From sequence record MK759854: a stretch of 44,605 nucleotides of DNA; one strand, given 5' to 3'. The notes beneath the pieces were generated by a model. The model was not told where the DNA came from. It worked only from the letters and a program-made list of their open reading frames with translations, and did no database searches. Both the position numbers and the translations under genes were made by a program. The DNA is from Shigella phage DS8. How positions within the stretch are numbered: the first letter of the stretch is position 1; every line of letters begins with the position of its first letter. Shown piece by piece: positions 41,888 to 44,455 of the stretch.

Positions 41888-41915
41888 ACAAAACCCGCAT
41901 TATGCGGGTTTTTAT
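41886..41915. terminator. bidirectional rho-independent terminator between convergent operons
   Basis: Hairpin AAACCCGCA-TTA-TGCGGGTTT with a T-run. Confidence 0.65.
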
Positions 41916-41917
41916 TG

Positions 41918-42454
41918 CTACAGACGCATCGGCATAACAACAATCTTCGCAGTCTCGCCAGATGGCGCATTAAGGCAGCAAACGGCGGCATTTGTATTCC
42001 CATTCAATTCAAACTTAACGCCACAGAATTTAGGATTAAACAGCTTCGACACTTTCTCGATATCCACGAGATAACCAGCATTGAAGCCAATTTCCTCTGC
42101 TGCTTTAGTTTCCTTTGGTATCGCGCGGTCAATATCAGGGAATATACCATCAATCTCTTCGCAGATACCAGAACCAACCATCGCGCCAGTTTCATCATGA
42201 TACGTTGCAATTTTCGACTTTGTATCAATGATGGCGTACTCATAACGTTTTGTTGGAGATTTACCAATCTTGATAATCACATTTTCTGTCAGCTTATTGT
42301 CATGACTGCAGCCAATGAATGCGCGATGACCATCAGTTGAGGCAATGCGACCATCAGGCATGAAGCAGATGCCGTTCAGGTAGTAGCGCACATCATTACG
42401 CGCCTTAAATATTAATGCCGACTCAAGTAATAATTTGCTGATTTTTAGTTTCAT
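41918..42454 (-). CDS. truncated beta sliding clamp (DnaN) homolog: domain II plus C-terminal part of domain III
   Basis: 178 aa; colinear with E. coli DnaN from about residue 140 as I recall it: DVRYYLNG, TDGHRA, DG.FPD, EIGFN..Y.LD and the exact C-terminus VVMPMRL; no domain I. Confidence 0.6.
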   Translation of the reverse strand: MKLKISKLLLESALIFKARNDVRYYLNGICFMPDGRIASTDGHRAFIGCSHDNKLTENVIIKIGKSPTKRYEYAIIDTKSKIATYHDETGAMVGSGICEEIDGIFPDIDRAIPKETKAAEEIGFNAGYLVDIEKVSKLFNPKFCGVKFELNGNTNAAVCCLNAPSGETAKIVVMPMRL

Positions 42455-42624
42455 CACTTCACCTTAATCATGTGTTGTTTTGCAACCTTCAGGCATTCTT
42501 CAAAAATGCCACCCTTCTTTGCGCTCTGATTGCGCTTGTAATACTGGATTGCCACATCAATTGCCATCTGGTCGATATCTGGCAGCTTAGCGCGCAGTTG
42601 CTTGACGAGAAAATCATAAACGTT
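42454..42624 (-). CDS. small protein (56 aa), hypothetical
   Basis: Hand-found ORF, GTG start with GGAG RBS 6 nt upstream; TGATG-coupled to the DnaN-like gene. Confidence 0.3.
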   Translation of the reverse strand, partial: NVYDFLVKQLRAKLPDIDQMAIDVAIQYYKRNQSAKKGGIFEECLKVAKQHMIKVK

Positions 42625-43105
42625 CACTTTTTACTCCGTGATTCTCGTGATATCCAGTTGAAGTTTCAGCTTTTTCTCTGGCTGATATTGCATCTTCTTT
42701 ATTGGCAAAAAAACCAATATGCATCTTTGATACATAAGCCCTCCATAACCCACTCTTCCTGTCAAAGCTAACGCCAGTTCTTCCTGATTTGTTATTTTTC
42801 TGCCTGCTGAGATTTCTGTGGTTCTCTATATGGCTCACCAGCCTTAAGTTTTCAATGCGGTTATCATCACGAATATGGTTAATGTGATCAATTTGCATCC
42901 CGTCAGGGATTGGTCCATTAAACATCTCCCATATAATTCTGTGAGCCAAGAACTTTTTGTAATCAACGCATATGATTACATATCCTGTATTTGCAATTGT
43001 CCCAGCTAAAGAGCCACTTAGCATTTTTCTTTTTTGGTGCTTCCACCTAAGCGCCCCATTATCATAATGAAAAATATCACCCCAATTTATTTTAGTTGTG
43101 TTCAT
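42614..43105 (-). CDS. HNH homing endonuclease with AP2 DNA-binding domain
   Basis: IDHINHIRDDNRIENLRLVSHIENHRN (HNH) followed by GVSFDRKSGLWRAYVSKMHIGFFANKEDAISAREKA (AP2-like); ATG 43105 with GGAG RBS. Confidence 0.7.
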   Translation of the reverse strand: MNTTKINWGDIFHYDNGALRWKHQKRKMLSGSLAGTIANTGYVIICVDYKKFLAHRIIWEMFNGPIPDGMQIDHINHIRDDNRIENLRLVSHIENHRNLSRQKNNKSGRTGVSFDRKSGLWRAYVSKMHIGFFANKEDAISAREKAETSTGYHENHGVKSERL

Positions 43106-43914
43106 CACATCTTCTCCAGAATTGCCATAACCTCGTGAATATCAGCAACAGGAATCTGGATAAATTCCTCATCCTCAGCCACCACATGGCCAGCAGGTAG
43201 AATCACGTGGTCTGCTGGCTTCAGTAACTCAATCAGGCGGTCCACTGGCTTAATCTTTTTCGACTTCAGCACCTTTGCTGTGACCTTTTCTTTGCCTTGC
43301 GCCTTCGCTTCTTCTACTGCCTCGTCGATAACTTTAACCGCATCATCGCCATGCTCACGCGTTACCGCTACGGCATTTGCATAGCTGATTTGCCCTGCAC
43401 TGATGCGCGCTTTTACTTCTGCTGGCACATCACCAAGCGACAGATGCATTTGCACGTCAGATACTGAACGACCTACCTTTTTGGCGATTTCTTCATTCGT
43501 CCAGCCAAAGCCTTTCAGTCTCGTGTAAGCCTTTGCACGCTCAAACGGGTCGAGCTGCTTACCCTGGCTGGATGACACCATGAAGGCGATTTTGTCTGCT
43601 TCGTCTCCAGTGAAGTCCTTACACTCAATGCGAACGATTGGTGCGCCGCGCTCAATGGCACGCAGTGCACCGAGATAGCGATGCTGACCATCAAGAATGC
43701 GGATTCCCTTCTCGTCTGGAATAACTGTTAATGCTGGCAATGGCTGACCTGATTCCCAGCACTGCGCGAAATATTCAACGTGCTGCTCGTCTGCTTCGCG
43801 GATGTTGTATCCCGGCTCCAGATAGATTTGCTCAACTGGCACTAGATAGGTTTTGTTAACAGCGATACCGTTGCGCGTTTCTTTGTCTGAATAGATTTTG
43901 CTGAGTGTTTTCAT
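43105..43914 (-). CDS. ParB-like nuclease-domain (ParB/Srx fold) protein
   Basis: IRILDGQHRYLGALRAI matches the ParB N-terminal domain core; ATG 43914 (alternative GTG 43926). Confidence 0.6.
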   Translation of the reverse strand: MKTLSKIYSDKETRNGIAVNKTYLVPVEQIYLEPGYNIREADEQHVEYFAQCWESGQPLPALTVIPDEKGIRILDGQHRYLGALRAIERGAPIVRIECKDFTGDEADKIAFMVSSSQGKQLDPFERAKAYTRLKGFGWTNEEIAKKVGRSVSDVQMHLSLGDVPAEVKARISAGQISYANAVAVTREHGDDAVKVIDEAVEEAKAQGKEKVTAKVLKSKKIKPVDRLIELLKPADHVILPAGHVVAEDEEFIQIPVADIHEVMAILEKM

Positions 43915-43915
43915 A

Positions 43916-44107
43916 TTATTCACCACTTTCTTCTAATAAAAGTTCATAGTTTGCAATGTACGCATTAGCCAGATGATATATTTGCTCTGCGGCACAACGC
44001 TCTGGCACGCTAAAGTCATCAATAGAACCAGCATTGCTGAGTGCATCAACACAATTTCGGAAATCATCCATAGTATTTCGAAACATACAGTAGGACATGT
44101 TTGCCAT
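43916..44107 (-). CDS. small acidic protein, hypothetical
   Basis: 63-aa ORF with GAGGAG RBS. Confidence 0.4.
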   Translation of the reverse strand: MANMSYCMFRNTMDDFRNCVDALSNAGSIDDFSVPERCAAEQIYHLANAYIANYELLLEESGE

Positions 44108-44109
44108 GA

Positions 44110-44370
44110 TTACTCCTCATCACCCTGAAAAATGCCGCCAAACTCTTCTACCAGCTCATCAATACATTGGTCCGCCTCAGCGCAATTACCAGCAGCACAA
44201 AGCAGAATATCAGCCGCCTCATCATCAGGAATGTTGATTGCCGAGAAGAACTCAACAATGCACATTTTCACAACCTGATATTCACCTTCTGTCTGGCATG
44301 ATGCGAAACTGCAAGCGACCGCATCAATCAGCTTGGCTTTGTCATCACTTGGGTTATCAATATCAAACAT
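44110..44370 (-). CDS. small highly acidic protein, hypothetical
   Basis: 86 aa, strongly Asp/Glu-rich; GAGGTGA RBS; first gene of the leftward operon. Confidence 0.4.
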   Translation of the reverse strand: MFDIDNPSDDKAKLIDAVACSFASCQTEGEYQVVKMCIVEFFSAINIPDDEAADILLCAAGNCAEADQCIDELVEEFGGIFQGDEE

Positions 44371-44397: not shown

Positions 44398-44455
44398 TTC
44401 TACGTCATCACTATAAACACACCATCAATCTACGTCAACAGGAATATGCTAAAAT
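44398..44455. promoter_or_regulatory. divergent promoter region: two motif copies and extended -10 TGCTAAAAT
   Basis: TTCTACGTCATC (44398-44409), CAATCTACGTCAACA (44426-44440), TGCTAAAAT (44447-44455); same motif-to--10 spacing as the lysis promoter. Confidence 0.4.

Follow-up and report, generated by a model that had tools for sequence, protein, structure and literature searches.

A half-size beta sliding clamp homolog in Shigella phage DS8 carrying the residues of the clamp-binding-motif pocket

The locus and its gene neighbourhood

The window analysed here is the whole 44,605-nucleotide stretch of DNA from Shigella phage DS8 (record MK759854). It contains a leftward operon that includes a gene for a 178-aa protein related to the bacterial beta sliding clamp, DnaN. 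This protein is called the half-clamp below. The features of the region are listed by their positions in the window.

41890..41912, no strand: GC-rich hairpin with T/A runs on either side
41918..42454, minus strand: half-clamp CDS, 178-aa half-size beta-clamp homolog, domain II plus part of domain III
42454..42627, minus strand: 57-aa ORF, PHROG 4439, no assigned function
42460..42465, minus strand: Shine-Dalgarno AAGGTG, 5 nt 5' of the half-clamp ATG
42614..43108, minus strand: HNH homing endonuclease, PF13392
43105..43926, minus strand: ParB/KorB-like DNA-binding protein, PF17762 and PF08535, PHROG 1033
43916..44107, minus strand: 63-aa ORF of the half-clamp leftward operon, PHROG 8760, no assigned function
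44110..44370, minus strand: 86-aa first gene of the leftward operon, PHROG 14587, labelled 'anti-restriction protein'
44410..44438, minus strand: sigma-70-like promoter candidate, TTGACG-17-TATAGT, 10/12 consensus matches (consensus match only)

A preliminary description of this DNA had placed the open reading frame at 41918-42454. These coordinates are exact, and the gene lies on the minus strand, which that description left unstated. The start codon ATG occupies 42454-42452 and the stop codon TAG 41920-41918. The position of the Shine-Dalgarno sequence supports this ATG as the start rather than the GTG at 42457. The stop codon of the 57-aa ORF overlaps the half-clamp ATG (TGATG), and this junction is kept in about 40 related loci, as are the ribosome-binding site and the stop/start coupling. 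The promoter candidate is situated 5' of the leftward operon. The hairpin is likely a bidirectional terminator that closes both the half-clamp operon and the convergent capsid operon.

The 57-aa ORF is found directly 5' of the half-clamp gene in nearly all Skatevirus-like relatives, and it shares 86% identity with the C-terminal tail of a methyltransferase ORF of phage C1. In this phage lineage, the ParB-like gene constantly accompanies the 57-aa ORF and the half-clamp. Between the ParB-like gene and the 57-aa ORF, the HNH gene forms a variable insert that most relatives lack. No DNA polymerase gene is present in the 44,605-nt window, and no clamp-loader gene in the closest annotated relative.

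In other phages, the half-clamp family is placed in early or replication operons, at times beside DNA methyltransferase genes. In lambdoid prophages the half-clamp gene comes after cI/cro/cII and is followed by genes for an O-like initiator and a DnaB-like helicase. In other phages it adjoins an SSB gene. In several lytic groups it is a lone gene in opposite orientation with its own terminators, located within the head module. Kagunavirus phages with a Pol A gene of their own also carry the family; this polymerase has no clamp-binding motif.

Homology to DnaN and domain map

By these sequence comparisons, the half-clamp is a genuine, diverged DnaN homolog, with homology far above chance. A single-sequence phmmer search with the phage protein against PDB clamps returned E values of 7e-13 to 1e-10, and a half-clamp family profile matched solved clamps at E 7e-26. 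With hhalign, the match to E. coli DnaN had a probability of 99.4%, aligning residues 8-117 with E. coli residues 137-253 and residues 118-178 with 313-366. The homology claimed in the preliminary description is thus upheld, and all motifs quoted there were found: DVRYYLNG, TDGHR, DG.FPD and EIGFN..Y are present, and VVMPMRL is the exact C-terminus, identical to that of E. coli. The DnaN domain models that it had named as a check, PF02767 and PF02768, do match, but at 15 bits, under the gathering cut-off of 27. A Pfam scan at E<=10 returned these two DnaN domains and no RusA model. The sole return of an NCBIfam scan was TIGR00663 dnaN (E 3.6e-7, 29 bits against a cut-off of 137.65). Identity to E. 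coli DnaN is about 30%.

The alignment gives the following map in half-clamp residues.

Residues 1-117: DnaN domain II
Residues 102-113: inter-domain connector with the equivalents of P242 and R246
Residues 118-178: pocket-forming half of DnaN domain III

E. coli DnaN domain I and residues 254-312 have no counterpart in the hhalign alignment, which agrees with the earlier view that domain I and half of domain III are missing. The half-clamp is therefore 1.5 domains in 178 aa, whereas DnaN has three domains in 366 aa. Since a clamp domain consists of two repeated halves, the last 60 residues can also be aligned with the first half of domain III. That this segment is the second half is clear from its pocket motifs and from the exact match at the C-terminus.

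Family, annotation and selection

The protein of the window is an ordinary member of a short 'Pol III beta' phage family. In this family, 151 clusters (50% identity) reach E<1e-10, and nearly all of these are 170-210 aa long. A tblastn search found half-clamp relatives in 262 phage records, with at least 80% of the protein covered in 255 of them. The hosts of these phages include Enterobacteria, Vibrio, Burkholderia, Pseudomonas and others, and the members include Bcep781 gp15 and proteins of Pantoea LIET2, Kagunavirus, Dhillonvirus and Hafnia yong1. In the BASEL collection, whose phages are publicly available, Bas80 and Bas81 were matched; Bas77-81 are Skatevirus isolates. An apparent relative of 3420 aa (P0204), with 14 matched stretches, was discarded as spurious. 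Its score is a sum of weak matches to the single repeats of a repeat protein.

The GenBank label 'DNA polymerase III beta subunit (fragment)' has been in use since Bcep781 gp15, so the raw homology to DnaN is not new. PHROG 3007 matches half-clamp residues 1-178 of a 190-position profile at E 2.4e-61. It is labelled 'RusA-like Holliday junction resolvase', and this label has been propagated in RefSeq phage genomes. On the sequence evidence above, the label is a mis-annotation. No functional study of the family was found in a literature search, and the passages searched in the survey of viral clamp homologs by Kazlauskas and Venclovas (2011) do not describe this short family in 40-50 kb phages. 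PADLOC models at E<=0.01 gave no defence or anti-defence match to the half-clamp.

The gene is under strong purifying selection. The dN/dS ratio is 0.11 among 42 orthologs, and all 46 orthologs compared have 178 codons. A blastn search of 5,426 complete E. coli genomes found no nucleotide match, even with the word size set to 11. Recent capture from the host, or a chimera, is rejected on these two grounds. Together with the low protein identity to DnaN, they confirm the earlier statement that the gene is too diverged for a recent pickup.

These data also bear on whether the half-clamp is a decaying, functionless remnant of a captured dnaN. The protein does look like a fragment and was called one in early annotation (Bcep781 gp15). 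However, the selection and the constant length are joined by hundreds of diverged members of the same architecture in unrelated phages, by the preserved ribosome-binding site and translational coupling, and by a confident fold prediction. The selection and distribution data effectively refute decay.

The clamp-binding pocket

Clamp-binding motifs are QLxLF-type peptides found in Pol III alpha, epsilon and delta, Pol I, II, IV and V, ligase, Hda, and MutS and MutL. According to the alignment, domain II, the second half of domain III and the connector between them build a complete cleft for such motifs. The pocket residues were taken from a published list (PMC11139829), and 17 of them could be anchored to the half-clamp. 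Fifteen are identical to E. coli, in line with the retention of cleft residues noted earlier; the exceptions are L177, which is A45 in the phage protein, and V247, which is A111.

The pocket residues are also the columns of highest conservation in the half-clamp family. In an 89-member alignment, the near-invariant columns mostly belong to the pocket (R23, L26, G42, H43, P106, Y128, M174 and P175), and the half-clamp has no other near-invariant surface. Subsite I positions R176, L177 and V247 differ between family members. Judged by this pattern of conservation, the half-clamp probably acts through a beta-type pocket that takes up clamp-binding motifs.

A partner was sought among phage proteins. 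Scans for clamp-binding motifs revealed no convincing or conserved motif in any ORF of the window, in Kagunavirus Pol A, helicases and SSB, or in the neighbouring methyltransferases, Nmad5 and O-like proteins. The sequence QAEMMF in the Dam protein of Lumpael was rejected as a motif since its relative has KQDMLD at that place. C-terminal Q-x-x-M-x-F tails of CII were also rejected, as they occur in some lambdoid neighbours only; these tails are presumably a known protease tag. With no motif found in the phage's own proteins, the partner of the half-clamp is probably a host protein.

Loss of ring elements and predicted structure

The canonical interface of the beta ring is formed by I78 and F106 packing on I272 and L273 (PMC11139829). 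I78 and F106 belong to domain I and I272 and L273 to the first half of domain III, and all four fall in segments absent from the half-clamp. As both sides of the interface are in the missing parts, no normal ring is possible, as the preliminary description had also concluded. The loss of domain I, of the ring-closing half of domain III and of one channel helix rules out a conventional, loader-dependent ring.

The AlphaFold2 model of the monomer has a pLDDT of 97 and a pTM of 0.91, and its top matches among solved structures are beta clamps. In BFVD, many phage proteins of like size and fold were found, with TM-scores up to 0.89. The model has two long helices, at residues 7-16 and 126-139, where three were expected; residues 64-72 form a loop, and the missing inner helix is that of the second half of domain II. 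A continuous layer of inner helices, two per domain, is not found in the model.

A linked two-copy construct was modelled with a pTM of 0.80, using AlphaFold2 monomer weights, an artificial tandem fusion and a 32-sequence alignment. In this model, both copies have strands 121-125 and 145-149, of which the monomer shows at most vestiges. The prediction suggests that the orphan half-domain may be completed by a second copy, which would give a two-fold symmetric open dimer with two pockets. Foldseek comparison of the linked dimer with the PDB gave a TM of 0.33 and an rmsd of 21 A; these values carry no information on the geometry, because a two-fold dimer is not colinear with beta. Unlike in beta, the two pockets of such a dimer would face opposite sides, and simultaneous binding of alpha and epsilon as on beta would thus not be reproduced.

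Charge and DNA contact

The family has a median pI of 8.3, compared with 5.8 for the equivalent E. coli fragment. The shift is modest: net charge moves from -3 to +2, and 29% of members have a pI <7. Lysine or arginine is present in at least 50% of family members at positions 11, 19, 70, 134, 137, 142 and 147, and the retained inner helices carry conserved basic residues. The DNA-contact loop, E. coli residues 148-152, is kept as RNDVR. The preliminary description had anticipated neither this basic shift nor the lost inner helix nor the predicted self-dimer. According to PMC3201878, viral clamp homologs that have no loader and an increased positive charge act like non-ring factors that bind DNA directly.

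Possible functions of the half-clamp

Most likely, the half-clamp is a non-ring module that docks the clamp-binding motifs of host proteins. The acidic-to-basic shift, the DNA-contact loop, the basic inner helices and the location in early operons tentatively favour a DNA-bound platform as the form of such a module. The half-clamp would be made from early or replication operons, as the gene context suggests, and would sit on phage DNA without a clamp loader. It would then offer beta-type docking sites to host clamp-binding proteins, which may thereby be brought to the phage genome early in infection. As a whole, a pocket-bearing, non-ring half-clamp acting as a DNA-bound platform is our provisional best explanation. 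Recruitment of the replicative polymerase cannot be its universal role, since some carriers of the family have a Pol A of their own in which no clamp-binding motif is present. The preliminary description had proposed an adaptor to the host replisome because the phage has no polymerase gene; the window indeed has none, but the argument does not carry over to Kagunavirus.

The platform may take a more specific form. Protomers of 1.5 domains could complete each other over a two-fold axis, as an open dimer or as a closed, D2-symmetric, 12-unit tetramer. Such an assembly would be on DNA without a loader, carry beta-type pockets on both faces, and serve many phages as a private docking hub that captures host Pol III, Okazaki-maturation or mismatch-repair proteins. 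This detailed version is rather unlikely to be right in full. If true, such a dimer or tetramer would be a type of oligomer of which the clamp fold has no known example. A related idea is a real ring of D2 symmetry, built from four protomers, which would surround DNA and serve host Pol III as a processivity clamp. Four times three gives 12 beta-alpha-beta-beta-beta units, as in the beta dimer or the PCNA trimer, and the predicted two-fold pairing of half-domains would yield half of such a ring. However, the second half of domain II has no helix, which would leave gaps in the channel lining, and the required contact between domain II edges is unsupported by any prediction. Equivalent faces are hard to square with loading by the host clamp loader, and clamp-loader genes are lacking. 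A real ring is therefore quite improbable. Even less probable is a poison subunit that breaks the host ring by forming mixed oligomers with host beta, as the preliminary description had considered. The half-clamp is homologous to the host protein, and dominant-negative fragments are a common viral strategy; still, neither side of the canonical interface is present, and the complete domain III of the host offers the orphan half-domain no partner. The host beta dimer is moreover extremely stable, with a picomolar Kd (PMC11139829), which also stands against poisoning.

A pure decoy is possible, though we favour it less than the DNA-bound platform. A soluble half-clamp would present a free beta pocket and titrate host clamp-binding proteins off the host clamp, with no need to bind DNA. 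Hda, MutS/MutL, translesion polymerases or the delta wrench are candidate targets, and host replication control or repair would be re-programmed in the phage's favour. Since the pocket is the only near-invariant surface throughout the family, a pure decoy fits the conservation at least as well as a platform does. It also accords with the presence of the gene in phages with and without their own polymerase. A lone, reversed gene with its own terminators in the head module resembles an accessory gene for host takeover, and in DS8 the operon is shared with the gene labelled anti-restriction; DNA methyltransferase genes often adjoin the half-clamp gene as well. Variation at the three subsite I positions could confer selectivity. 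The affinity of delta for monomeric beta is about 50-fold higher than for the ring (PMC11139829), and a non-ring pocket could consequently be a strong competitor. On the other hand, a general decoy would draw on Pol III alpha and epsilon as well, which polymerase-less carriers such as DS8 and the lambdoid prophages need to replicate themselves. It would require high expression to beat the host clamp, and it leaves the basic shift, the kept DNA-contact loop and the basic inner-helix residues unexplained.

The neighbouring genes raise a further alternative, namely that the half-clamp is an accessory of a DNA-modification or partition module together with the ParB-like protein, methyltransferases or both. 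It might, for example, retain a methyltransferase or a ParB complex on phage DNA just after replication. Essentially every one of about 50 Skatevirus-like loci has the half-clamp gene in one contiguous block with the 57-aa ORF and the ParB-like gene, with stop/start coupling, and methyltransferases from three unrelated Pfam families (Dam PF05869, C5 PF00145, N6_N4 PF01555) or Nmad5 directly adjoin the gene in about 6 of about 13 lineages examined. Yet no association with methyltransferases exists in Kagunavirus, yong1-type lambdoids, L178, L180 or L172. In the lineage of DS8 the methyltransferase is a variable insert that is absent from the window. The neighbouring methyltransferases have no conserved clamp-binding motif, and such genes are plentiful in early phage regions anyway. 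An accessory role of this kind is improbable, if less so than a real ring.

Comparison with known systems

The half-clamp shares with E. coli DnaN a colinear domain II and second half of domain III, the pocket and the C-terminus. DnaN is acidic, forms a ring and is served by a loader, whereas the half-clamp is basic, has 1.5 domains and one inner helix fewer, and is encoded by a phage without a loader. A precedent for the real-ring reading is beta*, which Skaliter, Paz-Elizur and Livneh are said to have described in 1996 as an internal dnaN product of E. coli consisting of domains II-III. It reportedly acts as a clamp with an altered oligomeric state. Beta* begins near residue 135, where the half-clamp also begins, and it is reported to be functional without domain I. 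However, beta* has domain III in full and is able to restore a ring of six domains, while the half-clamp lacks half of that domain and one helix. Unlike beta*, the half-clamp is an independent, long-diverged gene family.

The herpesvirus processivity factors UL42 (a monomer) and UL44 (a C-shaped head-to-head dimer) have a clamp fold with no closed ring and no loader, a basic DNA-binding face, and docking of a polymerase peptide. The half-clamp resembles them in its clamp fold and lack of ring elements, and may resemble them in binding DNA; the predicted two-fold dimer would be analogous to UL44. In contrast, UL42 and UL44 are PCNA-like, have two full domains, serve the virus's own polymerase and show no detectable sequence relationship to the half-clamp.

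Phage P1, like DS8, has no polymerase of its own, yet encodes a homolog of an accessory subunit of the host Pol III holoenzyme. PMC7556043 cites Chikova and Schaaper (2005) for the finding that this protein, Hot, a homolog of Pol III theta, can replace the host subunit. Hot is a full-length functional replacement, whereas the half-clamp is a re-engineered fragment unable to replace beta.

The pocket of the beta clamp is the central hub at which the proteins of bacterial replication and repair dock; it is also a target for antibiotics. Peptides of staphylococcal phages bind DnaN, and gp8 of phage N4 binds delta. These proteins target the same hub in host takeover, the clamp pocket and its ligands, and DS8 would be their mirror image, providing a pocket for host ligands where those phages provide a ligand for the pocket of the host. 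The half-clamp family discards the ring yet keeps the docking hub, and it has spread across hundreds of phages. If the pocket is functional, the family would give phages a means, not described so far, of capturing or diverting host clamp-binding proteins, the reverse of blocking the host pocket with peptides. A functional half-clamp would also provide structural and inhibitor studies with a minimal pocket module of natural origin. Its identity as a clamp homolog would correct the resolvase label carried by RefSeq phage genomes.

The clamp gene and its operon

The half-clamp, the 178-residue DnaN-like protein of the window, is encoded by a real ORF at 41918-42454, as first described, and the ORF lies on the minus strand. 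It runs for 178 codons from an ATG at 42454-42452 to a TAG stop at 41920-41918. An alternative GTG start is possible one codon 5' of this ATG. The ATG is taken as the start because AAGGTG lies 5 nt ahead of it, the stop codon of an upstream 57-aa ORF overlaps it (TGATG), and about 40 related loci share this junction. A leftward operon, antisense between the capsid and head-tail genes, ends with this gene.

Features of the leftward operon (coordinates, strand, feature)
44438-44410, minus, candidate sigma-70-like promoter heading the operon
44110-44370, minus, 86-aa gene, first in the operon; PHROG 14587 'anti-restriction protein' (E 6e-45), no match in Pfam or PADLOC
second gene of the operon, minus, 63-aa gene
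43105-43926, minus, ParB/KorB-like gene, third in the operon
42614-43108, minus, HNH homing endonuclease gene, between the ParB-like gene and the 57-aa ORF
42454-42627, minus, 57-aa ORF (PHROG 4439), directly upstream of the half-clamp
41918-42454, minus, half-clamp CDS, last in the operon
41890-41912, likely hairpin terminator common to this operon and the convergent rightward capsid operon

The terminator hairpin has a perfect 10-bp stem (AAAACCCGCA/TGCGGGTTTT) with A and T runs on either side. Residues 159-164 of the ParB-like protein (QMHLSL) fit the Pol IV-type hexameric clamp-binding pattern; they lie inside a predicted HTH domain and so are probably buried. The 57-aa ORF shares 86% identity with the C-terminal 57 residues of the 'methyltransferase' ORF25 of phage C1, the first 51 residues of which match the end of PF01555.

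A shortened homolog of DnaN

The homology to DnaN proposed in the preliminary description is upheld by several comparisons. The single sequence matches solved beta clamps at E 7e-13 to 1e-10, and a profile from 89 diverse family members does so at E 7e-26. The hhalign comparison with E. coli DnaN gives 99.4% probability, and TIGR00663 (dnaN) matches at E 3.6e-7. Two Pfam DnaN domain models also match, but with scores under their gathering cut-offs, and the half-clamp, judged by its sequence, is therefore a DnaN homolog that is not DnaN by curated criteria.

In the hhalign map, residues 8-117 correspond to E. coli residues 137-253 (domain II and the connector) and residues 118-178 to E. coli 313-366, reaching the exact C-terminus. 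Domain I and E. coli residues 254-312 have no counterpart, which agrees with the earlier view that domain I and about half of domain III are missing. HMMER can also place the last 60 residues on E. coli 255-305, since a clamp domain holds an ancient internal repeat, one copy in each half. The motifs EIGFN..Y and VVMPMRL-COOH mark the tail as the second half of domain III.

Docking pocket and ring interface

The residues of the pocket, where the clamp-binding motifs of polymerases and repair proteins dock, were taken from a 2024 review (PMC11139829) and transferred to the half-clamp through common motifs. Fifteen are identical to E. coli, in accord with the cleft residues initially reported as retained: R152, L155, T172, G174, H175, R176, P242, R246, N320, Y323, V360, M362, P363, M364 and R365. 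L177 and V247 are replaced by alanine, and V344 was not placed in the mapping. The near-invariant columns of the 89-member alignment are mostly pocket residues (R23, L26, G42, H43, P106, Y128, M174 and P175), and selection in the family is thus focused on this docking cleft.

The beta ring closes by packing of I78 and F106 of domain I against I272 and L273 of domain III (PMC11139829). All four residues lie within the segments missing from the half-clamp, and the protein could not form a normal ring by itself, as had been supposed. The E. coli pocket residues span 152-177, 242-247 and 320-365, and the domain III ring interface is at 272-273. Because pocket and interface fall in different segments of the residue lists, the internal deletion would remove the ring-contact half of domain III and spare the pocket half. 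An intact-looking, strongly conserved beta-type pocket is thereby found on a protein unable to form the beta ring. Three defining features of DnaN (three domains, the ring interface and a full helix layer) are absent, and the half-clamp is consequently classed not as a DnaN but as a clamp-fold variant of new architecture.

Predicted fold and oligomeric state

AlphaFold2 predicts a confident monomer (pLDDT 97, pTM 0.91) with three beta-alpha-beta-beta-beta-type units, the middle one without its helix and with a loop at residues 64-72. The solved structures that match it best are beta clamps (TM 0.61-0.67 on the query), as expected from the proposed DnaN fold, and the predicted viral structures include many phage proteins of its size that resemble it (TM up to 0.89).

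A half-domain is expected to leave its core exposed. Two copies were joined by a 30-residue Gly-Ser linker and modeled with AlphaFold2, using an alignment of 31 homologs concatenated likewise, keeping the pairing. This model reached a pTM of 0.80, to be read against about 0.45-0.5 for randomly placed bodies and a ceiling of about 0.92 with a disordered linker. Residues 121-125 and 145-149 of the orphan half-domain, isolated bridges in the monomer model, are regular strands in both linked copies, which is to be expected where each half-domain fills out its partner around a two-fold axis. In beta, the counterpart of the first of these strands is slotted into the sheet formed by the domain's other half. 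The artificial fusion model thus predicts mutual completion across a two-fold axis, an arrangement that recalls the C-shaped UL44 of herpesviruses; it is non-colinear, and Foldseek comparison is blind to it. Two such dimers might close a 12-unit ring, although the lack of one helix speaks against a regular channel. The 57-aa protein, rather than a second half-clamp copy, could also cap the orphan half-domain.

Family extent and genomic context

A full search of 1.84 billion representatives returned 151 clusters at E<1e-10, nearly all of 170-210 aa, with full-length DnaN proteins ranking below the short-family clusters. A metagenomic protein of 3420 aa (P0204) was rejected as a relative; it is built from 14 nearly identical repeats, each about 242 aa long, and its E-value of 1.7e-13 against the query arises by summing weak matches to the individual repeats. 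By tblastn, the family occurs in 262 phage records, with hosts that include Salmonella, Escherichia, Klebsiella, Vibrio, Proteus, Burkholderia, Pseudomonas, Shewanella and Xanthomonas. All 46 orthologs from related phages are exactly 178 codons long, and the median dN/dS is 0.11 (42 orthologs with a usable estimate). These selection data exclude a dead remnant. Recent host capture, for which the gene had seemed too diverged, is ruled out because none of 5,426 complete E. coli genomes matches the gene at the nucleotide level.

The window is a complete contig in IMG/VR. Salmonella phage BS5, a Skatevirus-type siphovirus, is 92.5% identical to it across the half-clamp region and encodes a helicase, primases, SSB, Erf and an exonuclease; DNA polymerase and clamp loader genes are both absent from BS5. 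A phage Pol A query found no match within the window. The claim that the phage has no DNA polymerase gene thus stands for the window and BS5. It fails as a family trait, because Kagunavirus encodes its own Pol A and the family is not limited to polymerase-less phages.

The ParB-like gene, the 57-aa ORF and the half-clamp always occur together in about 50 Skatevirus-like loci, and in nearly all of these relatives the stop codon of the 57-aa ORF overlaps the start of the half-clamp gene immediately downstream. An insertion hotspot separates the ParB-like gene from the 57-aa ORF. It is occupied by an HNH gene in the window and BS5, by an N6_N4 methyltransferase in C1 and a small number of other phages, and by longer unidentified inserts in some; in most related phages it is empty. 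Dhillonvirus, Kagunavirus and the Burkholderia myovirus Bcep781 carry a lone half-clamp gene, oppositely oriented, at the same place in the head module. This antisense slot between head-morphogenesis/portal and scaffold/capsid genes, shared with Skatevirus, suggests an old association with the head module.

Half-clamp loci of two kinds (positions within each locus)
Antisense half-clamps in head modules: L001 6938-7474; L002 4998-5510; L003 4962-5483; L089 4001-4582
Methyltransferase or Nmad5 neighbors: L004 5631-6296; L005 2771-3649; L171 2283-3989; L091 3343-3984; L176 2725-3453; L174 3347-4227; L002 5592-6356

A DNA methyltransferase or Nmad5 protein is the immediate neighbor in about 6 of about 13 lineages examined. 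The methyltransferases belong to three unrelated Pfam families (Dam PF05869, C5 PF00145 and N6_N4 PF01555) on unrelated phage backbones, and no conserved clamp-binding motif was found in any of these neighbors.

Hafnia yong1-type lambdoid prophages carry the half-clamp in their early rightward operon, flanked by cII on one side and by O-like and DnaB-like replication genes on the other. Other temperate elements have it first after cro or adjoining SSB. Some CII-like proteins immediately upstream (in L057, L065, L067, L077, L079 and L081; also L088 3684-3983) end in Q[IVF]x[MI]xF-COOH, for example DDSQVTMNF, which is similar to hexameric clamp-binding motifs such as the one at the C-terminus of Pol III alpha. 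The remaining CII neighbors have no such tail. Lambda CII ends similarly, and its tail is known as a protease tag; the likeness may be coincidence.

Possible functions

The half-clamp probably acts by binding clamp-binding motifs. Its ligand is probably a host protein, because no convincing motif was found in the phage proteins scanned. We lean tentatively towards a DNA-associated docking platform, independent of a clamp loader, over a soluble decoy. The family has shifted from acidic to basic (median pI 8.3 versus 5.8 for the equivalent E. coli fragment), and the DNA-contact loop (E. coli 148-152) is kept in a more basic form. Conserved K/R residues occur on both retained inner helices and on the loop replacing the lost helix. 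The presence of the gene in replication modules also favors a platform, as does the likeness of the predicted dimer to UL44. In a survey of viral clamp homologs, those that lack a loader and have gained positive charge are linked with direct DNA binding (PMC3201878).

A decoy that titrates selected host clamp-binding proteins is only slightly less likely. It would account for the pocket being the sole near-invariant part, and the gene behaves as a host-takeover accessory gene with anti-restriction and methylation genes among its neighbors. The affinity of delta for a non-ring pocket can far exceed that for the ring (PMC11139829). However, replication of the phage itself depends on the host and would be starved by a general decoy. 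Poisoning of host beta dimers, also raised in the preliminary description, is unlikely because neither half of the beta interface is present. The nearest functional analogues include non-ring viral processivity factors and E. coli beta*. P1 Hot is a precedent for phage-encoded copies of Pol III accessory subunits.

Existing names

Our literature search found no functional or structural study of the family. The half-clamp is an interesting and directly testable lead, and the mechanism given here is a proposal. What appears to be new is the recognition of a fixed 1.5-domain design, the exact preservation of the docking pocket with exact deletion of the ring contacts, the predicted half-domain dimer, the shift to basic charge, and the recurrent early, replication and methylation contexts. 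The DnaN homology itself is already known from annotations: in original GenBank records the family goes by 'DNA polymerase III beta subunit', with 'DNA Pol III b subunit fragment' given for gp15 of Bcep781. RefSeq and the phage profile family PHROG 3007 use 'RusA-like Holliday junction resolvase', a label with no support from Pfam or NCBIfam that has spread to many RefSeq phage genomes (for example NC_054646.1 6938-7474).
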